From NCBI GenBank assembly GCA_020137815.1, contig CM035355.1, forward strand, positions 7,688,001 through 7,752,000: DNA of 64,000 nt, given 5' to 3'. A program made the translations under genes and the position numbers. Below are positions 36,614 to 49,805 of the stretch, piece by piece. This DNA comes from Hormiphora californensis. Its lineage: Eukaryota; Animalia; Ctenophora. A model generated the notes under the pieces. The model had not been told where the DNA came from. It did not search any database and saw nothing but the letters and a program-made list of their open reading frames with translations. Position 1 is the stretch's first letter. Each line of letters begins with the position of its first letter.

Positions 36614-36740
36614 GGGATGGGAATGGTTGTGTGATGTGTGTCGTTGTTGGTAACTTCCACCTCTCACATGGCAAGTCCGAACAGTCCACCTCCGCGTGGT
36701 CCATCCTGGGCGGGTCCAGCGTGATCCGGCTAAGAGGCTG
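36614..36740 (+). ncRNA. HDV-like self-cleaving ribozyme at the RTE 5' end
   Basis: P1 GGGAUGG (36614-20) / CCAUCCU (36701-07) with G1-U wobble; P2 CAGUCC / GAGGCUG with bulged A; P3 ACC/GGU; L3 UCCGCGU; P1.1 CC/GG; P4 CGGGUC/GAUCCG; J4/2 G-C(36730)-UAA. Confidence 0.88.
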
Positions 36741-36751
36741 CGGGCGATGCG

Positions 36752-39145
36752 GTGTGTCGTGCTAGCTACTCGTCATGCTTTAAAAATTCAGCTACGAATC
36801 TCTCGGTGTCCTCCTCAAATTTGGCGTCGGTGAAAGCTGGCAAGGACCGGTACTGCGGCAGCGAGGTTAGGGTGACCAGGGGACGGGAGGAGGGTAAAGC
36901 TGATTCGGGGCCCTCCGACCTGATGGGAGCCCCGGTTCCGGTTTCATTCAGTCGCAGAGTTATTTCGGGTCAACACATCCCTGGTGTGGCCCACCCCGGT
37001 ACATTGAATCCGCTTAATTGTGTTCGTGATTATTTTCATCTGGCAACTTGGAATGTTTTATCTCTACAGTCATCATCATCTAAGTTGTATGAATTATCTA
37101 ATGCAGTTTCATCTTTCCGACTCGACGTTTTGCTTCTCACAGAAACGCACTGGCCTGGTACGGAGGTCATCACCCTGGATAACGGGCATCTTTTCATTAA
37201 CTCTGGCAGGGCAGATGGTTTGAGGCGGCAAGGTGTTGGGTTGGTTTTATCAAAATCTGTCAAGAAGTCCTTAATTTCCTACAGTCCCTTCTCTGAACGC
37301 ATCATGGCAGCCCGACTACACACCAAACATGTTAATATCTCCCTTGTTGTTGCATATGCTCCAACCAATGACAAGGATGACGCGGTCAAGGAGGAGTTTT
37401 ACAACCAGTTGTCATCGGTTTTGGATAGGCTCCCCCGGCAGGACGTGGTCTTCCTGGGTGGGGATTTCAACGCGAGGGTTGGTGGTGGGCACTCTCTCCA
37501 TCAAGTTTCAAATGACAATGGTGAGCGGTTGGAGGATTTGTGTGGTGCTTACCAGTTGTCTATTGGTGGAAAGATGTTCCCTCATAGGGATCATCACAAA
37601 GGAACGTGGAAGTCTCCTGACGGTACCACTGTCACACAGATAGATCATCTGTGTGTTGGAAACAAGTGGCGAAGTTCTCTGTTAGATGTTAGGGTCCTAA
37701 GGAGTGCAGACATCGGGTCTGATCACTACCTGGTACGAGGAAAGGTTAGGATCCGGCTGAGTGCAGCTAAGAACTGTAGAAAACCTGTCAAAGAGGTTCC
37801 AGCCATAGAGAATCTCAGGAAGGGGTGCGACGAGACACGCACGGAATACAATGTCTCTCTCCGGAACAGGTTCGAATCTCTGGAGCCTGAGGAAAGTCTG
37901 GAGGGTCAGTGGGGGCAGTTTAAGGAGGTAATCGGTGAGGTGTCACTTGAGGTCCTGGGAGCACGGCCTAAGCAGGTTCGTCAACAGCACCTGTCTCTGG
38001 AAACTCGAGACCTTATCTCTCAACGTGCTGAGCTGAAGAAGAATGATCCCGCTGGTGGATCTGAGTACTCCAGGCTTAACAAGCTGGTCAAGAAGGCCTC
38101 ACGTTTGGATGCAGTGAAACATGGTGGGGAACTCTCCGATTGGTTCAATGTTCTTAGTGGTACTGGTCAGGGCGACATCCAGGGGCCGCCAGTCTTTAAC
38201 ATCGTTATAAACTGGGCAGCTCAGCTTGCTGAGTGTAACAAGACTGTCTCCAGGGGGCTCACTCTTCAGGGTGTTGAGAGTGGGGATGGAGGGGAGTGGC
38301 TTCTGGACCTCGATTACGCGGATGATATGGCTGTAATGGATGATACAGAGGAAGGGCTCCAGGAGTCTACAGATTTACTGACTAAATACGCTGGGTATGC
38401 TGGTTTGAAGATCAATGCGAAAAAGACTAAAGTTATGGCATTTTCTAAGGGTCTTAACCAGCGTCCCTTTTCGGAGGCGGATACGGTCAACATATCTGTG
38501 GAGGGCAATCCGGTTGAGCAGGTGACCAGTTTCACCTATCTTGGATCGGCTATGTCCTCTGATGGTACCATCGACAAGGAGCTGGGTATCAGGATAGGGA
38601 AGGCATACAGTGCATTCAGTATGCTTTGTAGGATCTGGTACAACCGTAACATCAGGACCTGTACCAAGATCAGGATTTACAGGGCTGCTGTTCTGACGGT
38701 GCTTCTCTATGGTTGTGAGGCCTGGACCACCACGCAGGTACAAGATCGCCGGGTGGAGGCATTCCACCAACGGTGCCTGCGGAGAATCCTGAGAATACAG
38801 TGGTTTAGGAGAGTATCTAACAGGGAGGTACTGGAAAGGGCGGGGATAGAACCAATCTCGAAGTTCATAGGCAATGGGAGACTCCGCTGGTTTGGACACC
38901 TGGTTAGAATGCCTGAGGATAGGGTGCCCAACAAACTCTATCACTGGGTGCCTAGTCATGGGAAACGTTCCAGAGGAAAACCGCGTAAAACCTGGTCCTC
39001 CTGTGTTCTGAATGACTATCGAGACGCTACGGGTCAATCCCAGTCTCTCCGTGCTATTACTAACACTGCAGAGAACAGAAATGAATGGAGACAGCTCACG
39101 TCGCTGCGAGCGAGGATACTTGGAGCCGGCCACTCGAATGATTGA
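36752..39145 (+). CDS. RTE ORF: APE endonuclease plus truncated reverse transcriptase
   Basis: Endonuclease motifs 'ATWNV', 'LTETH', 'YAPT', 'GDFNA', 'IDH', 'SDH'; RT 'GTGQGD', 'DYADD', 'YLGS'; C-terminal 'RLRWFGHLVRM'. The RT N-terminal subdomains are missing at ~38110. Confidence 0.9.
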   Translation: MCRASYSSCFKNSATNLSVSSSNLASVKAGKDRYCGSEVRVTRGREEGKADSGPSDLMGAPVPVSFSRRVISGQHIPGVAHPGTLNPLNCVRDYFHLATWNVLSLQSSSSKLYELSNAVSSFRLDVLLLTETHWPGTEVITLDNGHLFINSGRADGLRRQGVGLVLSKSVKKSLISYSPFSERIMAARLHTKHVNISLVVAYAPTNDKDDAVKEEFYNQLSSVLDRLPRQDVVFLGGDFNARVGGGHSLHQVSNDNGERLEDLCGAYQLSIGGKMFPHRDHHKGTWKSPDGTTVTQIDHLCVGNKWRSSLLDVRVLRSADIGSDHYLVRGKVRIRLSAAKNCRKPVKEVPAIENLRKGCDETRTEYNVSLRNRFESLEPEESLEGQWGQFKEVIGEVSLEVLGARPKQVRQQHLSLETRDLISQRAELKKNDPAGGSEYSRLNKLVKKASRLDAVKHGGELSDWFNVLSGTGQGDIQGPPVFNIVINWAAQLAECNKTVSRGLTLQGVESGDGGEWLLDLDYADDMAVMDDTEEGLQESTDLLTKYAGYAGLKINAKKTKVMAFSKGLNQRPFSEADTVNISVEGNPVEQVTSFTYLGSAMSSDGTIDKELGIRIGKAYSAFSMLCRIWYNRNIRTCTKIRIYRAAVLTVLLYGCEAWTTTQVQDRRVEAFHQRCLRRILRIQWFRRVSNREVLERAGIEPISKFIGNGRLRWFGHLVRMPEDRVPNKLYHWVPSHGKRSRGKPRKTWSSCVLNDYRDATGQSQSLRAITNTAENRNEWRQLTSLRARILGAGHSND

Positions 39146-41317
39146 GGAGACCGAACCAAGTATCAAGTAAGTAAGTATCTTTCACCGTCACAACTTTACA
39201 TGACCCCAGCTGCTGGGAGACAGGTGAGGCTTGATCAGTGGCACATATTTTCACACTGATCCGGCTCTGAGTCTCTCTATCGATCTCTGCTCGAGTCCTT
39301 ACAGCGCCACTAGTCCTGTCTACCGCCAGAAGATCACTGGTTAGGTTATAGTGAACCGACCCCCGCAGGTCCTGAGTCCGCATCTGTCGCCAAGGACGGT
39401 GAAGAGTTTAGTTCCTATGTCAACGTTTTCAGCCACCCAAACGGTCGATATACCGTCTACAAATATTGGTACGTTGTTGTTCACTTCAATGACGGTGATC
39501 TTGATTGTCTGTTCGGCCGATTTGGAAGGAGTACCCAGTGATCTGATGCCGTTACTTTTACCGTGTAGACCGTGGAAGAGGAGGAGAGTTTCTGAAGAAG
39601 AACGAGATTCCCGGTGGCACTTTCAACTGAGAACAGGCCATTTGGATTTGATGAAAGGGTATAACTAACCTTCCATTGAGACCACTATCAGCATCATGTT
39701 GCCTCGACCTTCAGTATGAACTGTCATGGGAGACGTCGACTCGACCACCCCGATTTCTATCGTATCAGAGACGAACACCGGTGCGTTATCGTTCACATCA
39801 GATAGCTCAACAATCACAGTAGCACGACCACTTAGAGAAGGAGTTCCGTTGTCCGTAGCAACCACAGAGACGTTGAATCTTGGCTGGGTTTCAAAATCTA
39901 ATGCTCGTCGAGTGGTGATAACCCCAGATTGCCCGTTCAACTGAAAGACCTGCTGGTTCTTCAGGAAGGAAAATGTGATCTGATTGTTCAACGGTCCATC
40001 CTTGTCTGAAGCCCGGACAGTCACCACTGGGCTTCCCACGGCAGTGTTCTCAGGGACCACAACAGTGTAGGGATCCTGACTAAAAACTGGAGCATTAAAA
40101 AGGGCATACGTAGGGGTACGTCCATCTGACCCGAGGATGTAGCCTTTACCCCCTGCCTAGTTCTCGTAATCGACTTCACGGATTAATGAGAGTACACCTG
40201 TAGTTGAATGTATGGAAAAGTATTGAACGTTAGTGCTCTGTGATACAAAGTACCTCACTAAACCATTGTCTCCCTCATCTGCATCAGTGGCGAGTATTGT
40301 TTCAATTATGTAAGGGATCGCAACGCTCTCTGGAATGGTAAAGGAGTAGGGAGCGTCCGTGAAAATAGGACTATTATCATTCACATCTTGAACTATTATT
40401 GTTAGTGCCAGAGTCCCAGACAGAGACGGATGCCCCTTATCCTCGATCTCCACAGTAAGTTCGTACCGAGATCGCTCCTCACGATCGAGTGAGGCCGTAA
40501 TTCTTAGCATGACCTTCTGGAAGGTGGCCGTGGTCTGAAGGATCGGCTGAAATGGCCAGTTCTGATCTGCCATGTCGACTAACTGAACTCGCTTCAATAG
40601 CCCATTGTCCCCCGTGTCACCGTCACTCCAGGGCGGCAAGTCGAATGTCTGCTCCCCCATACCCTCAGCAACTTCGATTGAAAAACTGTCAACGGAAAAA
40701 TGGGGAGCCTGGTCGTTGATGTCAATAATTGTCACGTCAATCACGACCAACACCTTTTGATGGGAACTGTCTGTGCCGGAGAATTTCAGGGTAATATCAT
40801 CAGAAGAGAGAGATTCACGGTCAATGACATCAGTTGTTTTAAGTGTCTCTGAGGTCGTCTCGTAAACGAAATAGTGGGCACAATTGCAGTCTGATGTTAT
40901 GGTGTATGTTCCATCTGGATCAATGCCAGACAGTTGACCGACGAATGCCCCTGCCGGTTGCTCCTCCTTGACACTGAAACTGAACATGGTATTAGAATTA
41001 GATTAGTGAATATATTTGTTTATTAACTAGGTATGAAGTTGCGCTTGCCACCGAAAGTGCTCAACCTTGTCACGGGAGCTGTATTAGTAGAAATGAAACA
41101 CGGAGATTTACGCAAACACATGTTTATTGGAACAAGATAGATAGTATCTTCACTCGCTGCATTCTCACGTTTCTCTCTTTTCTCACACAACACGCCCTAC
41201 TGTACAACAGTGAAGGGGAAACATACAGCGGGCAGATCTCAGGGTGGAAGGGTCATTTGTTAATTATTATAATGAGATCTGATCAGGATTGAATAGGGAG
41301 GAAACTAGAAAAATATC

Positions 41318-41391
41318 TGGCGAGGGCCGGGCTCGAACCGACAACCTCTGCATTACATGTACATTGCTCTAACCTATTGAGCTACCTCGCC
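41318..41391 (-). tRNA. tRNA-Thr(TGT)-like sequence, probably a pseudo-tRNA or SINE head
   Basis: Acceptor stem GGCGAGG/CCTCGCC; D arm GCTC/GAGC; T loop TTCGAGC; anticodon loop CA-TGT-AA (A at position 33); T5 run a few nt downstream. Confidence 0.6.
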
Positions 41392-41652
41392 TACAATTTA
41401 TCTACATTTCCTCTCTCTATATCACTGATCATGCCCTTAGATATTGCAGCTGTAACTCATATAGGAACAAGATAGATAGTATCTTCACTCGCTGCATTCT
41501 CACGTTTCTCTCTTTTCTCACACAACACGCCCTACTGTACAACAGTGAAGGGGAAACATACAGCGGGCAGATCTCAGGGTGGAAGGGTCATTTGTTAATT
41601 ATTATAATGAGATCTGATCAGGATTAAATAGGGAGGAAACTAGAAAAATATC

Positions 41653-41726
41653 TGGCGAGGGCCGGGCTCGAACCGACAACCTCTGCATTACATTTACATT
41701 GCTCTAACCTATTGAGCTACCTCGCC
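41653..41726 (-). tRNA. Second tRNA-Thr(TGT)-like copy
   Basis: Same as 41318-41391 except anticodon loop AA-TGT-AA. Confidence 0.55.
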
Positions 41727-43020
41727 TACAATTTATCTACATTTCCTCTCTCTATATCACTGATCATGCCCTTAGATATTGCAGCTGTAACTCATATAGG
41801 AACAAGATATATAGTATCTTCACTCGCTGCATTCTCACGTTTCTCTCTTTTCTCACACAACACGCCCTACTGTACAACAGTGATTTAATCCTGATCAGAT
41901 CTCATTATAATCATATGTTTATTGATTTCAGTACCTGAAAGTTGCATTTCCAACAGCAATAAACGTCAAGTATAGAGTTACTAGGAGGTAGAAACGCATG
42001 GAATATCAGATCTTTCTTTCAGTGACATCTAACTTTCATTGCTGTGATGAAAAGGATTGTTAGCAACCATTCGTTACAGTTTACACGCAATATTTTCACA
42101 TCAAAAGTTCCGTATTGCAATTGCAAGTTGGGGCATGATACTATTTTGAAGACCATAGACCAGCAGTGCCTAGTACAAACAATAAAGAAAGAAGGGCGAT
42201 AAAAATGAGGTTGAAGCCATTGGAAAATGGTGCTCCGCCTGCCGCCATATTGGCCTCCCACGATATCAAGGACACACGAAAAACGGTTAATGTTATTGGA
42301 CGGCGTCTTAGACGTCTACGAATTGTAGACCGCTTCGTAGGCAACACTTTATGCGGGCGGGCAATATGACGGGCACCTAAGTTACAAAATATTTTTGGTC
42401 AATACCCCATTTGTTCCATCCAATTACCCCCTGATGGCTGATTCTTCAGAGTGACGATAATTTTAAAATGGCATGAACAAGTCAAAAGACCACCGCTGAC
42501 CGCAACCATTAAAAAGGGTACATGCTCGATTTTTTTTCGATCGCTCCGACGGCCGACCGACGGGCACTGCTAAGTAAGTAAGTAAGTAAGTAAGATTATA
42601 CATTTATATCCCACTCAACAGTGACAAAATTTAACATAGAAAAATGTGCCAACGCACTAGCTATGCTTAAGCACTTCCTCAAGTGGATACAGTCCTTGTA
42701 TCAACAGTCATTAAATATATTGCTCGCAACGACTGGAGCAACTTCTTAACATTTCACCAAAAGACATTAAAAAACGAAATACAAAAATTGTTAATAAATT
42801 AGTCCAGAGCATTTGGTTCGGTTAATCTCAGCATGTCTGAGTTTTTCTTACTCGTCAACAACTGGTATCTCGTATCTCGTTGCGTTCGATTTTGTTATCC
42901 CGAAGAGTATCTTGTTACGTCACGTTCACTCCCCCATAACCCGTACCACTCCCAATCATACAGATGGTTTGGTAGCTTTTCCAGGAAGGGGGATTCTCCA
43001 GAGGTGTGTAATATAGGAGA

Positions 43021-43451
43021 AGGACCCAGGAGGGAAGGGTGCATGTAGAAGAAGGACCCAGGAGGGAAAGGGTGAATAGGCAGGACCCAGGAGGGAGGGG
43101 TGTAGAAGCAGGACCAAGGAGGGAGGGGTGTAGAAGCAGGACCCAGGAGGGAGGGGTGTAGAAGCAGGACCCAGGAGGGAGGGAGATAGAAGCAGGACCC
43201 AGGAAGGAGGGGTGTAGAAGCAGGACCCAGGAAGGAGGGGTGTAGAAGCAGGACACTGGAGGGAAGGGTATAGAAACAGGACCCAGGAGGGAGGGGTGTA
43301 GAAGCAGGACCCAGGAGGGAGGGGTGTAGAAGCAGGACCTAGGAAGGAGGGGTGTAGAAGCAGGACACTGGAGGGAAGGGTATAGAAACAGGACCCAGGA
43401 GGGAGGGGTGTAGAAGCAGGACCCAGGAGGGAGGGGTGTAGAAGCAGGACC
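43021..43451. repeat. G-rich minisatellite, ~28-bp unit, ~15 copies
   Basis: Unit aggacccaggagggaggggtgtagaagc with variants. Confidence 0.92.
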
Positions 43452-43726
43452 TGCTAGCAGACAAGCTGAGAAAACCCACGATCAGATTATCAAATAACGC
43501 ATAATCTCACTGTTCCCCGTCATTCTCACGGCCCAAGGGGCAGCAGTCTTTCCCTTCAGTCTTCATTCAGAAGAGAGAACTCATAATTCGCGGATCGATT
43601 TTCGAAAAATAAAAATTCGTAAAAAAATTTTTTTCTAAAAGGGGGTTAAAATGGGATTAGATAACAATATCAATATGAAAATACCGGTCTCCCATGGGGG
43701 AGAAGATTAATAAATTACTGCATTGA

Positions 43727-46700
43727 TTAAAATTGATTAAATTTGGTAGAATTAAAAGTGTTATATAATAAGTTAATGTCATTGAGTTCGCTCTTATACT
43801 GCCTCGTTTTAGTGAACTTATTGCCTCTATGCCCTCTCAAACTAATGACAGTTGTTCTGAGCAGGGTGAAAGACAACCGCTGCCTAATGTAACGGATGGT
43901 GTCAGAGTAAGCCTGGTGTGTTTTGTCAGCAAGCAGCTTGGCAAGGCGCCTGTAGAATTTTTCTGCCTCGTTGCCCAGGGCACCAGTTACTGAAAACACG
44001 AGTGGGCAAAAACAACTCTGTTCAACCTCAAGGACACGTTCGTTATAGCAGCGTTTTTTCTCGTCCTCGTGTCGTTTCAGAGCTGTATCAAGAGGAATGG
44101 CACTGTTTGTGGGAGCCAATGGATTGAAGATGCGCACATCTGTGTAAATTTTGTCCATGGGAAGCCAAAAATCCCTGGCAGCAACATCAAGGCGAGCATC
44201 ATTTGCAGTGTTTGCTGATTTTAGCCGGAAGGTTTCGCCAGTGATTGGGAGAAGATGGGGTTCTCTTGAAACATCACGGCATCCCGCCTCTTTCAGCAGG
44301 TTTGCAGTAAGGTCCCGGATCTCATTATGCCGCAGCTGCACGTAACCACCAAGATGACAAGAGAGGCTGTGTTCAGTGGTGTTAGGTTTTCCACACGGAC
44401 AATTTGGTGGTCTACCCTCAAGTTCCAAGCAGTAGCGGAGGGACATGGAGTCCCAGAACTCCTGTTTGTTCAGATTGAACCTATGTTCCTTGAGGGGGAG
44501 AGATGTTACCCATATGGACGATCCTCGCCGTGTTCTCTCTTGGTGAAAACGCTGTTCGGTGGGTGGCAGTGCCTCTCTCACAAGCTCTTCAGCCTTGGTC
44601 TGGCTCAGCCGTTTGGTGGTCAACATCTCGGATTTCGCAGACACCAGATCCCGCTTCAGCAAATGCAAACTCTCTGAATCAAATTGTGTTTTCTGTCCGT
44701 TAATGATTTTGGAGAGTGGTGCAGTAGCTGCAGCAGAACTGGTGTATTCGAAATCCGCGATCTCGACGGGATTAAAGATTCCAAGGCCCCCGTGGCGGGC
44801 AGGGAGTGACAATAGCTTCCGATTGTTCGGTGTCAGTTGGTTGCTGATTGTTTTTGGGATGAAAGTGGATGATATGATGTCTTCCAGTGGCTGGAAGAGA
44901 CCAGAGATGTCCTTGGTAGTTCTCATAATAAACAACCACCGTTTGGAGAGTCCCATGATGTAAGCAGAGAATGATGGATGGGGCTCAGATGTTGAAAAAT
45001 CCGATAAGTCTGTAAGCTCCTGGGCCCACGTCTCAACCTGTTGACTGACGTACTGTTTCTTAAACTCGTCGGTACCTAGGGGAGCTCCGAGATATCTCTG
45101 TCCCTCTGATGTAATATGCACACCTGTGTCCTTGAAAATAGAGCTGGCAGTGTTCTCAAGCCCAGGTTTGACGATCAGCACAGACTTCTTTCCATTGGGG
45201 AAATAGCCTAATCCTGGGCCAACTTCGCACAGAATGTCCCACCACTTCCGCATAGCCAAGAGTTTCCCAACAGATGCACCGTCATCGGCACAGCGGGGGG
45301 AACTCAGGTTCTTCGTGCCAGCTGAGTTCTTCGAGCTCAGTCCCGTTGCCGTGGACCTGGTTGGCTGATGGTCCAGTGATTACGGTCAAATCACGCCGGC
45401 GCTCTCCCCAATCTTGGGGAGTAAACTTTGCCAGAGACCTTGCCGAACTCAACTATGGCACCGAGCTCTTGCAGTGCGGCTGGTCCCTGCTGGGATTTGG
45501 TTCGGCGGTCGATTGATGAGCGGTTGGTTGACGATTGATATCAGTCGTTGATCGATCGTTTGTCGGTCGGTCGTCGGACTGAGTTTTGGCGGGGATCCCG
45601 GTTGAACTGATAATCTCACCCCAGCCAGTAACCTTGTTACACATGGCAACCCCGCTATATACAGCAACCCCTGAGGGCTCTGCCCGTCGACCCGGCTGCT
45701 GTCGCCTGCAAAACAGCTCTCTTGCCCATGGCTGTCTTTAAGACAGGGCAGAGATAAACCCAGTAATAACCAAGTAGGGGCTGGTCGCCCCTGGGGAACC
45801 CCTGCCCAAATTTGCACCTAAAAACCTCTGCCTATTTAACCCCCACACCCTATTTGTTCCAAAAAACAGATCTAGACAAAACAGATCTAGACACTATCTT
45901 ACCCTACCACTACTCAAACGTAACGCGCGAAAACGCCATGGTGAACAAAGTCCGACCCAGGCCGAACAAACTGCGCGCACAGTTCCAAGCCCAAGTTCTA
46001 GACTCCTCAGACACACCCTACCCCCCCCCCCCTAATCCCAAGCTCCGCACATGCGTGATCTCCACACCTACAGCAAATCACCGAGCCTCAGACACGCACA
46101 CCCCAAAACAAGGCAAGTGACAAACCTACAAATCTGAAAGACCCTGTAGTAGTCAGGGAAAAGCCCATTACAGTTTGGGATACTTAAACAATGGTACCCT
46201 TATTCAAATAGCAGACACGCTTACACTGAGACCCCTCGCATTAATTACGCGAAGCCTTGAGTGAACTGATACTGGTCAAATGCACTCAGGGACAACCATA
46301 GACGTTGTTTTACAGCAACTAATCTATAACCTGGCCACCCGGCGATGGCAACATCGCCTGACCGGACCCTTGGGTCGTACTTGTGAATACATTACTAGCT
46401 AGCTTAGACTACAAGACCCTTGGTGTAAAGATAAGCATTTAATCCCTTGATAGGTAATCAATGATATCCGGCAAATCACCTACTTCCACAGTTGTCGTGA
46501 CAGTGGTAACCAAAGACCAACCAATTGGACGGTAAGTCCCATCACATGTCTGCGGGGAAGATTTCTCCGTGCCAAATCCGACACAGACTCGCATGCTCCT
46601 TTTGCGGTACCATAAAGAGACTGCTGGGAAACCAGTGGAATCTAAGTGGAATTATACCGACAGTGACCCTGCGTGTGGGGGTCATCTGGCAAGGAGTGAG

Positions 46701-48466
46701 GTCAGTAACGGGCCGGCTGAGGGGTCATCAATAACCTCAGCATGGGGTGGAACGACGGGAGGTACTGAACACACACACACACACACACCGTCATCGGCAA
46801 AGAAGATCTGTGCACAGTCTGCCTCGGAAAGGGCTGAGATGAGAGGATTCAGGCTGATGCAGTACCAGGGAGATGCAAGGTTGCAACCCTGAGTGGTGCC
46901 TTCACTACTCAGAATGAAAGTGCCATTCTGTAGGAAAAGTTTGGCAGGGGATCGGTAGATGTTGATCGTGAAGGTGGCGAGTGGGGGGCAGAGGTATCGG
47001 AGATTGACGAGAGCGGTTGCCCGATTAAGCACATTAAAGGCGTTGGTTGCATCCGCTAAGAGCACTCCCTCAGAGCCATCGTCATCAAACATGCTAGACA
47101 TGCTGTGGACGGCAGCCTCAATTCCACCCTGAAGACCAGAGGCAAGCTGCAGTGGCCCGGCTGCTTCAATGATGTCATTGTGTAGATGGCAGACAACAGT
47201 ACGCCCAATGATACGCCGGAGTATTTCCCCGATGCCGATGGGGCGGATACCCGGATTCTTGTTGAGGGCGATCAATCGACATGAGACCAAGGCAGAGATG
47301 GTGTGTGGGTTGATGAAAGAAGTGCAGAGGCGACGAGTCATTCTTGCCAAAGCATGGGCCAGGGCATCAGATTCGAGGTGGAAAGTTCTACTACACAACA
47401 TTCTCGCCCACAGTGCATCGGTCATTCCACTGGGACCTGCCCCTCCCTTGGTTGTGGCAGCTGATCTCCTGATTGATTCAGTGTCAATACTGTCAAACAG
47501 TGCTGGTTCAACACTGGGAGCTGGCAGGCGGGAGACTAAAAGGTCTCGGTTGAGTGGCTGGGCAGGGGGGTGTTTGGCACGGAGCCCCTCAATCACTTCA
47601 GGGGAGGGTGGGAGTGGTGCAGACGGAGAGGTGTTCAGCACACGGAGGGCCGCTGCAACTTTACCGTTCAACATGAGTCGAGAGAAGCTCTTCCGGGAGT
47701 TCTGATGGTTGCTACTCATAGGGATTTTGGATTGAATAGCTTTGCACTCCCTGACTAGGCTATCGAAGTCTCCCTCTCTCCACAGTTGTAGCCTTCTCCT
47801 GAGGGCCTCACATTCTTCAGAGGGCTTGGATCGTTTGCCTGGTTTCTGAAGGAGCAGGGCTCCCATCAGGTGGAGCGCTGTGATGGCAAATGGCTCCAGG
47901 GGTGAAGAGTTTGTCCAACCGTTAATCAGACGGGTTGCCTCGCTAATGAAGGCCTTTCCGGCTGCACCTGCTGGTAGTTTTTTAAAGAGATTTGGTTTCC
48001 AACTTGCAACAGTACAATGAATTTCATACAGAGTCTGGGGGAGGGTTAATTCTGAGTGTTCACCCCAGGAGTAGGGCCGGTGGGGCATAGGGGGGAAGTC
48101 TGGAATTTCTGAACAGTTGTGGCAGTGCCATGGGGCATCCTCATCTGAGGTAACCTTGTGGTACTCGTCTGGGGACAGTCCTGCACATCTGTGGTGGTAC
48201 CACCTATCACAATTAGTACATTGAATCCAATGAACCACTCCATTGAGTGAGCGCTTGGGTTCGTTGGAGTCATTGTAATTACTGCATGAAACACAAAGTT
48301 CAGAGGATTCATCAGAATTCACCGATATGGAGTGGGTTGAAGAAGAAGGGCAGGAGGATGGAAGGTTGGCGGAAGAACGGGATGGGGGAGGAGGAGCGAT
48401 GGACTGGTTGGATGGCGCTGGAGTCTTCTTGCGCTTGGACGTTTGCCGCTTCGTGCGTCCTGTCAT
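43727..48466 (-). CDS. CRE-like ORF, 1076 aa after removing the insertion and one TSD copy (48466-46786 joined to 45276-43727)
   Basis: PHD 'WIQCTNCDRWYHHRCAGL...WHCHNC'; RT 'IRPIGIGEILRR', 'DATNAFN', 'GTTQG', 'FADD', 'YLGAPLG'; CCHC knuckle 'CPCG...HSLSC'; 'RHN'; RLE 'RLDV...DVRI...EDEKKRCY'. The joined length is 3231 nt, in frame. Confidence 0.9.
45291..46785 (+). mobile_element. 1.5-kb non-coding retroposon with a (CA)n tail, nested in the CRE RT
   Basis: 14-bp TSD CACCGTCATCGGCA at 45277-45290 and 46786-46799; (AC)n tail ~46769-46785; no ORF with recognisable domains. Confidence 0.85.
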
Positions 48467-48520
48467 ACCAACGTGCCCGGACTGCCCCTCCTGGGCTGGC
48501 TCTACATCCTGAGGCGAAAT

Positions 48521-48566
48521 CTCAAATTAATTTGTTTAAAGTAGTGTTGAAAAGTTTGAAAAGCTC
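48521..48566 (-). other. Genomic copy of a ctenophore-type spliced-leader exon: GAGCTTTTCAAACTTTTCAACACTACTTTAAACAAATTAATTTGAG
   Basis: Matches the ctenophore SL as I recall it (...CAACACTACTTTAAACAAATTAATTTGAG). Followed by ATTTCG, not a GT donor, so it is not an SL RNA gene. Confidence 0.85.
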
Positions 48567-48962
48567 ATATGAAGAAAAGAGGAACACGACTGTGCGGGTG
48601 TACCATAGGTATATTGTGTTAGGACACGGAGAAAAGAGGTAGGGACACAAATCACAATAAAGAATGGCTGCATAATTCACCACTCCTGGTACACCACGCA
48701 CGTCCCTAGCGATTTATAAAAGTAAACACAGAAGTTTGAAAAGTAAAAAAATTCGTAAAAAAAATAAGTAAAAAAATTCGTGCTGAGCTTTTTACTCCGA
48801 GCGGCGCCGCGCGGTGCGATCCGAACACGCGCGGCTTGGAACGGCATCGCAAAATACATTTATTAAGCGCCCCGCAAAAATAATCGTTCGCGCGGCTTGA
48901 TCAAGCTCAGTGCTTTTTTTAGTTTTCGAAATTTTAAGCCCACAGTTTCGGTTTCCCGTTTC

Positions 48963-49495
48963 CAGGGCCCACGACACCGGGGGGGCCAGGGGGGGCCGGC
49001 CCCCTCTGGGATTTACCAAACATGGAAATTTTATTGAAATATTTCGTAGAGAATGTAAAAAATGCATGAAAATTAGTTGAAATTCTAAATTTTTCGGGGG
49101 GTTCGCCCCCTTTAAGGCATATATACAGGTTCTACGTGCCTCAAATCGGTTAAAAAGTCTAAATTTTTACCCCTTGACCATATTAGGAGCCTGTGGCCTC
49201 CAAACCCCCTACCGCTGCTCCTCCGGCGCCCCCTTCAAGGCATACAGGTTCTACGTAAACAGAAAGAAGGTGGAGATGGACTTCTAAATGCCTAAAATGT
49301 GTGAAAATCGGGTAAAAAGTCTAAAATTTTTCCGGGGGCTTCGCCCCCTAGACCCCATTGGGGGACTGCGGCCCCCAAACCCCCTGCCGCTGCTCCTCCG
49401 GCGCCGCTTCGCGGCACCGTCGTCGCGTGTGCATTTCAAAAATTACGGTGCTCCGCACCGGCCCCCCCTGGAAAAATTCCGTGTCGTGGGCCCTG
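48963..49495. mobile_element. MITE with 15-bp TIRs CAGGGCCCACGACAC
   Basis: cagggcccacgacac at 48963 and gtgtcgtgggccctg ending at 49495; GTTTC on both flanks (TSD length uncertain); internal subrepeats. Confidence 0.75.
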
Positions 49496-49805
49496 GTTTC
49501 GGTTTTTGAATGTTTCCGGTTTCGGTCTATCATTTGTCATTTGAGGCGCTGCGTTGTAACGCTACGCAGCCTCAAGTTTGTCTCTTCGTCGAGTTAAGTG
49601 CCTCGGCGAGCTTACGATTCGTATAAGCTCACACCGGGCCTTCGGCCCAGCGTGAGAGCCGACAGACTGGAAGCAATAAAGTATAAACATATATTGTAGC
49701 CATTACACAGTTTCTGGTGTTAAATTATATAGAAGCATGGGACAATAAGTGTAAAAATTTCAAACATCAGCAAAAATAAAAAGATAAACAACGGGAAGGA
49801 AATTA

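Follow-up and report, generated by a model that had tools for sequence, protein, structure and literature searches.

A retrotransposon copy on the minus strand of Hormiphora californensis DNA begins with an apparent host spliced leader (SL), which raises the question of how the leader came to be there. Non-LTR retrotransposons have to rebuild a translatable 5' end in every cycle, which they are known to do by means of internal promoters, ribozymes or fixed host targets. The copy lies in a window of 64,000 nucleotides (contig CM035355.1, positions 7,688,001 to 7,752,000), which is the whole stretch analysed here. Its features are collected in Table 1.

Architecture and boundaries of the element

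The element has the domain order PHD-RT-RLE. A sequence-only reading of the window had described it as one ORF of 1076 codons once a nested insert is removed, and this was confirmed. The two halves sum to that length, and the interruption of 1509 bp consists of the 1495-bp insert and one copy of its 14-bp target-site duplication (TSD). In a domain search the N half matched PHD (E 0.0016) and RVT_1 (E 7e-7), and in a relative (P0001) that is 93% identical over the N half the ORF is uninterrupted. In the C half, C293, H303, C307, H317, E339, D364 and D380 are invariant across the 60 aligned sequences. The structure model of the C half reached a pLDDT of 89.7, and all six Foldseek matches at E <= 0.001 were R2 proteins; the predicted fold is of the R2 RT-RLE type. 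A sequence search of the PDB returned PHD matches, and R2 reached only E 0.26. The single ORF with RT, then CCHC, then a PD-(D/E)xK endonuclease is the arrangement of the R2 group, and short 3'-end copies, varied 3' flanks, an A run and a 17-bp repeat are marks of TPRT. The sequence is a ctenophore copy of a multi-copy, dispersed non-LTR retrotransposon of the R2 group. The label "CRE-like" given to it before is provisional and goes by motifs; nearly all protein matches were unnamed, and no named CRE reference was among them. Its protein relatives were absent from viral_contigs.

The unit from SL to tail measures 3425 bp. Full-length relatives were mostly found on contigs of 3.3-3.6 kb, near this length (one is 5199 nt), which may hint that little space is left for a common upstream promoter. 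The co-orientation with the minus-strand genes pointed out earlier is real, but it has a chance of 1 in 2. The element body was without cover in run X15, which is guessed to be RNA; this has no bearing on expression.

Table 1. Positions of the element and of associated features in the window
Feature	Position	Strand	Basis or remark
ORF C half: RT end, thumb, CCHC knuckle, restriction-like endonuclease	43727..45277	-	516 codons plus stop, none internal
ORF N half: PHD finger, RT as far as FADD motif	46787..48466	-	560 codons, no stops
Nested insert, 1495 bp, antisense to element, (CA)n tail, without long ORF	45291..46785	+	sequence
14-bp TSD of nested insert	46786-46799 and 45277-45290		sequence
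3' UTR with small hairpin, short A run at end	43628..43726	-	includes the 3' 7-mer 43673-43679 proposed earlier
Likely TSD, 3' copy, 17 bp	43611..43627	-	17-mer twice in window; A-tail-adjacent repeats in relatives
Likely TSD, 5' copy, 17 bp	48747..48763	-	17-mer twice in window
5' UTR, 54 nt	48467..48520	-	sequence
GCCC-loop-GGGC-AG hairpin directly 3' of uORF stop	48482..48496	-	motif common to unrelated SL-headed L020, L037, L040
Start-stop uORF, ATG-TAG	48502..48507	-	sequence
SL relic, 41 nt, no splice donor behind	48521..48561	-	41/41 vs SL-gene exon of L027; equals 3' 41 nt of leader in PMC8527503
First 5 nt of the 46-mer proposed earlier	48562..48566	-	probably 3 nt from 168-bp piece, 2 nt from original junction
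168-bp piece with multi-copy hairpin repeat	48564..48731		12-bp direct repeats 48732-48743 and 48552-48563; depth of repeat

The sequence-only reading had taken ATATGAA (48573-48567 and 43679-43673) as the TSD. Both 7-mers are present, but they are not a TSD, as family sequence bridges the 3' copy in 4/4 runs: in each run, under two organism labels, a listed contig extends at least 31 letters to either side. Chance alone gave a recurring 7-mer 274 times in 20000 trials. The 3' loose ends of the family lie at 43622-43638 with dissimilar flanks among the contigs listed for the four runs, and the element ends near 43628 rather than 43673. A 17-bp repeat adjoins this end; a 17-mer repeat arose by chance in 3 of 20000 trials, and it is likely the TSD of the element, although it stands in T-rich, locally repeated sequence. 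The relatives L048, L063 and L050 carry repeats of 11-13 bp beside the A tail; the search in relatives covered 16 of 32 loci, and clear tail-adjacent repeats were seen in these three, of which L048 and L063 are near-duplicates. No TSD was found for L020, L037 and L040. An empty site was not found, with the flank 43590-43612 without cover in 4/4 runs, and a hairpin model of that site scored 35 joined versus 33 unjoined, which is barely different.

The 5' copy of the 17-mer is located 180 nt upstream of the start proposed earlier, and SL and TSD do not abut today. This distance can be explained by a later insertion because of the 12-bp direct repeats around the 168-bp piece, which include the 5' part of the SL and occur at these two places only. 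Judged from this arrangement, the piece is likely an insertion into an already existing SL relic. The copy would then have been disabled afterwards by two insertions, one in the RT and one probably in the relic.

The spliced leader and the 5' UTR

By its sequence, the 41-nt stretch at the 5' end of the element is the ctenophore SL. Of the 46-nt SL exon first proposed to start at 48566, the identity stands and the length does not: the relic, read from 48561 to 48521, is identical, when compared by eye, to the last 41 nt at the 3' side of the Hormiphora leader printed in PMC8527503 and agrees with the SL gene L027, while the remaining 5 nt resemble neither the SL gene nor the flank commonly seen in three DNA runs and are probably not part of the SL. 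The leader is fused to ATTTCG without GT, as had been stated; it ends at 48521 and the junction reads AT. It is the only SL copy in the window, and very many further copies with dissimilar flanks were present in the DNA runs. Leader DNA is joined exactly at the trans-splice junction and outside SL genes, as in an SL-relic retrocopy. The exact SL-UTR junction gave 0 matches in metagenome_contigs, and a second copy of the family with an SL junction was seen neither there nor among the DNA-run contigs, which did not resolve this junction.

The locus L027 served as the reference SL gene; it may come from another ctenophore species, and the host's own SL gene was not seen. SL RNA genes have a GT donor and a structured intron and often stand in a 5S array. 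L027 has a GTAAG donor and its own upstream sequence and is in tandem with 5S, whereas no such donor, intron or array was found at the window junction. The window flanks and the family's listed 3' loose ends are unlike the upstream sequence, donor, intron and 5S of L027. Insertion in an SL RNA gene was rejected, since gene upstream sequence, intron and Sm region are all missing from the flanks in comparison with L027, and the earlier claim of an insertion away from SL genes holds.

The 54 nt between SL and ORF and the ATG TAG uORF (48507-48502) were also as described before. A short uORF is the first ATG in 5/12 element loci versus 1/30 host mRNAs. The hairpin motif listed in Table 1 was found at most 80 nt from the SL in 4/12 versus 0/30, its definition having been drawn up with these loci in view. 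Read-through of the uORF stop codon was rejected as a general rule, being in frame in 2/5 only. Neither a ribozyme nor another relevant Rfam family was detected at the 5' end, with weak miRNA/snoRNA matches elsewhere in 43400-49700, and Rfam gave nothing relevant on 12 further loci, of which 6 are SL-headed and 6 are relatives.

Spliced leaders on other ctenophore elements

The SL scan gave 42 loci, namely 30 host mRNAs, the SL gene L027 and 11 SL-headed elements. It detects a copy only where a 27-mer is matched perfectly, and its sources are low-coverage metagenomes that favour multi-copy DNA and may represent other ctenophore species. The SL pattern had 0 matches in viral_contigs and genome_contigs. 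A host Pfam family was found in 26/30 of the host-type mRNAs and RT/APE in 0/30. Seven of the elements have APE and/or RT and three are ORF1-only; the last, L039, was classed as a LINE by its ORF1, which is 85% identical to that of L012, so that eight are firm LINEs. In this biased sample, the non-gene genomic SL loci besides the window were element heads in 11/11 and host retrogenes in 0/11. The SL-first design is common to several unrelated families (RLE in the window, APE-type LINEs and ORF1-only).

Over the 12 element loci together, the 150 SL bases not covered by the search pattern showed no internal substitution against the SL gene. Seven related elements differ by 53-97% in the UTR beside the SL and by 31-85% in ORF1. 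The relics are clipped at the 5' side only (28-43 nt, median 41), so that the "exact" 5' end in each cycle claimed earlier was overstated, and tandem relics were seen in 0/12. Relics clipped in every cycle would erode if inherited, and the leader would have to be refilled. In the SL exon, AG occurs at its two ends only, so that reuse of the terminal AG would be traceless. The SL was thus likely re-added by trans-splicing rather than inherited. GT directly follows the SL in 2/11 element loci (L019, L026), yet it is not the donor of the SL gene. Three of the 11 have a flank of only 1-6 nt, and L024, whose assembly otherwise yielded capped mRNAs, has 351 nt upstream of its SL.

A probable trans-spliced template and its alternatives

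The best reading, as first proposed from the sequence, is that the element RNA was trans-spliced before reverse transcription, to which we give a probability of roughly 0.85; the SL identity, the site away from SL genes and the 11 other SL-headed elements argue for it. Whether the cycle closes into a complete promoter-less loop, with the integrated leader as acceptor of the next round, appears evenly balanced. In such a loop, a read-through transcript from the host would cross an element copy, and the A/U-rich relic ending in AG would be treated as the end of an outron, where the spliceosome swaps in a fresh capped SL. The uORF-stop-hairpin module would damp translation of the ORF. The element protein would then prime reverse transcription on the short A tail, using a T-rich target, and would halt 0-15 nt short of the cap; a usable relic would again be present in the new copy. 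Re-splicing onto the AG of a relic is described for dinoflagellate retrogenes in the accessible text of PMC3229502. Against the loop, the relic ends in GAG, and animal splice acceptors with G at -3 are poor, although the ctenophore preference may differ. In four UTRs a YAG is kept 6-12 nt past the junction and would compete. The 180 nt between TSD and SL of the window copy leave room for a 5' transduction, in which the element is read through with no new splicing.

A possibility that we regard as unlikely is that a few hidden master copies keep a promoter and an outron, their spliced RNAs giving SL-headed dead ends and their rare unspliced RNAs renewing the masters. It explains the unmutated, non-tandem leaders equally well, the weakness of GAG as acceptor fits it, and a scan based on the SL is blind to SL-less masters. 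As far as the available text goes, C. elegans Cer1 gives rise to an SL1-spliced RNA as well as to one of 8 kb that is left unspliced (PMC3315495), and in Hydra an SL is present on about 30% of the long reads from TEs, the majority being without (PMC12220107). Against it, the contigs of full-length relatives mostly stay near the SL-to-tail unit, the one of 5199 nt excepted, and loose ends at the SL-UTR junction are missing from the 24 best-supported rows, with 414 more beyond, which may count slightly.

It is improbable that the relic was captured once and is now a fixed part of the element, transcribed either by read-through with no new splicing or from a promoter within the element, with the upstream 180 nt as a 5' transduction. 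Trypanosome L1Tc RNA is unspliced and made from an internal promoter (PMC1874656, from the portion available), L024 keeps its upstream sequence, and one run X6 contig possibly links the repeat upstream of the window copy to an SL (27-nt side). However, the SL bases stay free of substitutions while the family has diverged deeply, and the relics are clipped yet do not erode, both of which are at odds with a fixed relic, and the 12-bp direct repeat can explain the 180 nt by a later insertion. A one-off chimera, formed by a template switch to SL RNA or mRNA or by chance insertion beside a stray SL copy, is more doubtful still. The great number of genomic SL copies and the missing second junction in metagenome_contigs would suit it, but the junction lies exactly at the last base of the exon, the uORF-hairpin recurs at the same SL distance in other elements, and the 11 other SL-headed elements make it unlikely. 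Least probable is targeting of SL genes, either by insertion at the exon end as for CRE1/SLACS/CZAR or NeSL or by origin there with SL-gene sequence at both ends. The R2-group architecture speaks for it, as do 11 nt that the hairpin of the 3' UTR has in common with the L027 intron (a likeness spotted post hoc, and equalled in 25 out of 20000 random windows). Against it, the flanks lack the upstream sequence, donor, intron and 5S of an SL gene, the listed 3' flanks of other copies resemble neither one another nor the intron, and APE-type LINEs have the same SL head.

A trans-spliced template, if true, would be another way to obtain 5' ends, used in ctenophores by several element clades at once. 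Tentatively, several unrelated non-LTR clades (RLE elements, APE elements of two or more groups and those with ORF1 only) may have given 5'-end formation to the spliceosome, with the leader as a traceless, self-renewing acceptor replacing promoter and ribozyme and the uORF-stop-hairpin setting translation; most of the 491-718 leader loci would then be element heads, and the true SL genes would be in the 5S array. Leader copies number 718 in Hormiphora and 491 in Mnemiopsis, their nature not being stated in the available part of PMC8527503, and SL-headed elements may account for hundreds of them. Gene models that use such copies as shared first exons would then be artefacts, SL relics would mark full-length elements, and L027 would show the place of the real SL genes. 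LINE abundance would also be tied to the upkeep of trans-splicing.

SL-headed retrotransposons as such are not new, having been suggested for flatworms. The available texts report 597 SL-bearing retrotransposon loci in parasitic flatworms (PMC12582326) and 6 in Schistosoma mansoni (PMC5832876). These partial genomic leaders at LTR/LINE loci were likewise read by the authors as integrated trans-spliced retrotransposon RNA, although in another phylum and, in those texts, as side remarks without TSD, family analysis or cycle. In dinoflagellates, too, SL is copied into DNA and a later SL is spliced at the AG of the integrated leader (PMC3229502, PMC12014239); according to the accessible parts, host genes are recycled there and relics are in tandem, whereas here only elements were found (11 loci, biased sample) and no relic was tandem. 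Hydra (PMC12220107) and Cer1 (PMC3315495) show that TE RNAs are SL trans-splicing substrates in animals, but at the RNA level, SL-headed genomic copies not being described in the text available.

CRE1/CRE2, SLACS and CZAR of the CRE clade and NeSL-1 are RLE retrotransposons whose insertion sites lie in SL RNA genes (available text of PMC3636483 and PMC4640811). They share with the window element the SL at the 5' junction and a single ORF in which CCHC and the PD-(D/E)xK endonuclease come after the RT. CRE forms a TSD on insertion, to which the 17-bp repeat would probably correspond here. Unlike them, the window element is dispersed, has flanks without an SL gene, carries the SL inside the insertion and has an N-terminal PHD. 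R2 is rDNA-specific and its 5' end is freed by an HDV-like ribozyme, whereas the window element is dispersed and without a ribozyme match in Rfam. R2 is promoter-less and co-transcribed with host sequence, according to the part of PMC3636483 available. The likeness between the window element and R2 from Bombyx, zebra finch and turtle (PDB 8gh6, 9nl3, 9nl2) lies in the RT-RLE fold.

The spliced leader on an R2-group element

The retroelement on the minus strand of the window begins with a copy of the ctenophore spliced leader (SL): 48561-48521 (41 nt) is identical to the 3' 41 nt of the leader printed in the available passage of PMC8527503. Of the 46-nt SL-like exon proposed in the sequence-only reading, these 41 nt stand, while the first 5 nt are odd. 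The leader is fused to a 54-nt UTR without a GT donor, as proposed, and the ATG-TAG uORF lies where it had been placed. Only one leader copy occurs in the window. In three DNA runs the leader has very high depth with low agreement, and 24-31 contigs are loose on either side of it; the leader is present in many copies in unlike surroundings. For Hormiphora the same passage counts 718 copies in the genome, and for Mnemiopsis 491, with no account of what they are (PMC8527503).

After removal of the nested insert, two stop-free halves of 560 and 516 codons give the 1076-aa ORF that had been described. The N half matches PHD (E 0.0016) and RVT_1 (E 7e-7) in the profile search. The C half, modelled at pLDDT 89.7, has six PDB matches at E <= 0.001, every one an R2 retrotransposon protein, and the CCHC and acidic residues of this half are invariant across 60 aligned sequences. 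P0001, an uninterrupted protein relative, is 93% identical to the element. These results indicate that it is an R2-group element. The label 'CRE-like' rests on motifs, and no named CRE reference for an RT tree was found among relatives from sequence searches. CRE/NeSL elements, described as targeting SL genes in the parts available of PMC3636483 and PMC4640811, share its protein plan but differ in insertion site. Within the nested insert, 45487-45591 forms a long hairpin with a weak Rfam miRNA match.

Leaders at other loci

An exact 27-nt leader scan of metagenome_contigs returned 42 loci. One, L027, contains at 709-1513 an SL exon, a GTAAG donor and a folded intron, within a 778-bp tandem unit that also carries a 5S rRNA gene. 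It is a ctenophore SL RNA gene, maybe from a ctenophore species other than that of the window. At 30 loci the leader stands at the contig start and is followed by host-type ORFs, with a host Pfam family match in 26 and RT or APE in none.

In the remaining 11 loci the leader is fused to an element, which makes a one-off chimera unlikely for the window element. The lack of host retrogenes among these loci means little, because the scan favours multi-copy DNA and perfect leaders. APE and/or RT was detected in 7/11 (in L006 only at E 0.0015), and L039 was assigned through an ORF1 85% identical to that of L012. L020, L037 and L040 encode only a protein which, by its motifs, we take to be LINE ORF1-like, with no relevant Pfam match; L037 has a PHD-type lead, and L040 ends in (TAA)n, with homologues mostly on contigs of 1.0-1.3 kb. 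The flank upstream of the leader is 17-461 nt in eight loci and 1-6 nt in three. GT directly follows the leader in two, and then a LINE UTR. Seven loci (L006, L011, L012, L019, L026, L039 and L042) are two-ORF APE LINEs of one broad clade, with ORF1 31-85% identical and a 5' UTR of 145-215 nt without upstream ATG. Neither the DNA runs nor metagenome_contigs showed a further copy of the family to which the window element belongs at an SL junction. Another 32 loci (L043-L074), filed under bacterial or archaeal MAGs, encode eukaryote-type RT-RLE relatives and probably represent DNA of animal hosts that ended up in the MAG bins; a 15-mer of the ctenophore SL was absent from all 16 checked.

In 5/12 element loci (window 48482-48507, L020, L024, L037 and L040) the leader is followed by a first ATG that starts a uORF of 1-4 codons, versus 1/30 host mRNAs (p 0.005 in a post hoc Fisher test). 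A hairpin lies 2-5 nt past the uORF stop; in four of these five it has the GCCC-loop-GGGC-AG motif, which none of the 30 host mRNAs carries. The proteins of these families are unrelated. Because the pattern was defined on the same loci it is a lead only; our guess is a brake on translation of capped, scanned mRNA.

Probable renewal of the leader

Across the 12 element loci, 150 leader bases beyond the search pattern show no internal substitution against the SL gene, and the copies vary solely in 5' clipping (28-43 nt, median 41). Copying from trans-spliced RNA is well supported. In the seven related LINEs, with ORF1 as divergent as stated, the 60 nt after the leader are 53-97% identical. Because a relic inherited through such divergence and clipped each cycle would decay, the leader is most likely re-added by trans-splicing, to judge from these comparisons; selection on the relic could contribute.

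In animals GAG makes a weak acceptor, and a YAG lies close by in four UTRs; both count against re-use of the relic's own terminal AG as acceptor. AG occurs in the SL exon at its two ends only, so such re-use would be traceless; tandem relics were found in 0/12 element loci. Full-length relatives mostly lie on 3.3-3.6 kb contigs, compared with a 3425-bp unit, which counts in its favour. For dinoflagellates, the splicing of a new leader onto the AG of a relic has been described (PMC3229502). We give this promoter-less cycle, plausible and unproven, a probability of about 0.5. It is rather unlikely, by comparison, that SL-less master copies supply the RNA for SL-headed ones, although unmutated and non-tandem leaders fit this equally and Cer1 makes both spliced and unspliced RNA from one element (PMC3315495, in part).

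Copying from trans-spliced RNA has already been suggested for other phyla. Leader-bearing flatworm LTR and LINE loci have been interpreted as trans-spliced RNAs that became integrated (PMC12582326, PMC5832876), and in Hydra about 30% of the long reads from TEs bear SL (PMC12220107). Tandem relics are described in retrogenes of dinoflagellates (PMC12014239, PMC3229502). The available passages of PMC7986045 have nothing on the ctenophore leader. Neither ctenophore SL-headed retrotransposons nor an element cycle with a self-renewing acceptor appeared in titles and abstract openings of the literature searched, mostly outside subscription papers. The SL-headed element is a real feature. New are the range of element clades in ctenophores that show it, the location of the SL gene within a 5S array, the uORF-hairpin that several families share and an interpretation of the 491-718 leader loci that can be tested.

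Element boundaries and neighbourhood

The likely TSD is a 17-mer that directly follows the short A run and whose only other occurrence is 48763-48747 (by chance, 3/20000); repeats of 11-13 bp adjoin the A tail in 3/16 relative loci examined. Just inside the upstream 17-mer is a 12-mer whose one other copy, at 48563-48552, shares 10 bases with the 5' part of the leader. In the simplest reading, no more than 5 nt originally separated the leader from the TSD, until a 168-bp repeat inserted into the leader and duplicated 12 bp; this would also explain the odd first 5 nt. The alternative is a 5' transduction of 180 nt. One X6 (DNA run) contig joins the repeat to a leader, with a short, weak side. 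No empty site for the window element was seen.

The 7-mer at 43679-43673 and 48573-48567, earlier taken as TSD, is ruled out. Its 3' copy is bridged by a listed contig with at least 31 letters on both sides in 4/4 runs, under two organism labels, and in run X10 this contig covers everything between the final codons and 43629; the 7-mer is therefore within the 3' UTR. Such a match arose in 274/20000 random trials. Among the rows listed, 3' loose ends fall at 43622-43638 with mutually unlike flanks. In three of four runs the last 85 bp (43630-43714) are much deeper than the rest of the element and show 5' loose ends at 43709 and 43714, which may reflect either numerous short copies of the 3' end or a SINE derived from it.

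Insertion into an SL RNA gene was rejected: the window flanks are unlike L027 except for the exon, and the L027 intron is absent among the family 3' flanks listed, in agreement with the proposed insertion away from SL genes. An earlier EST study had no genomes to locate the leader's origin (PMC8527503, available passage). An 11-nt match between a 3' UTR hairpin (43681-43691) and the L027 intron hairpin, seen after the fact, occurs in 25/20000 random windows.

Features of the window element and its surroundings
Feature	Position	Strand	Details
Window element ORF	48466-43727	minus	split at RT FADD motif by nested insert
Nested insert in RT		antisense	1495 bp; (CA)n tail; 14-bp TSD
168-bp repeat	48731-48564		multi-copy in DNA runs
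Tetraspanin	upstream of window element	minus
Cadherin	downstream of window element	minus
APE-RT retroelement	36614-39178	plus	10-bp TSD (36604, 39179); (AAGT)n tail
tRNA-like sequences	Tyr 41318-41391, Thr 41653-41726		ARAGORN
28-bp tandem array	43009-43534		at least 13 registers
MITE-like repeat	48962-49496		14-16 nt inverted ends; internal duplications; multi-copy in DNA runs

The APE-RT retroelement has no SL and lies antisense within a cadherin coding stretch. At 39096-39684 (minus), the frame of cadherin-like coding sequence changes several times from one short ORF to the next, which may be due to introns, gene decay or errors in the assembly. A 335-bp tandem duplication at 41002-41938, with one tRNA-like sequence per unit, is perhaps a tRNA-derived repeat.
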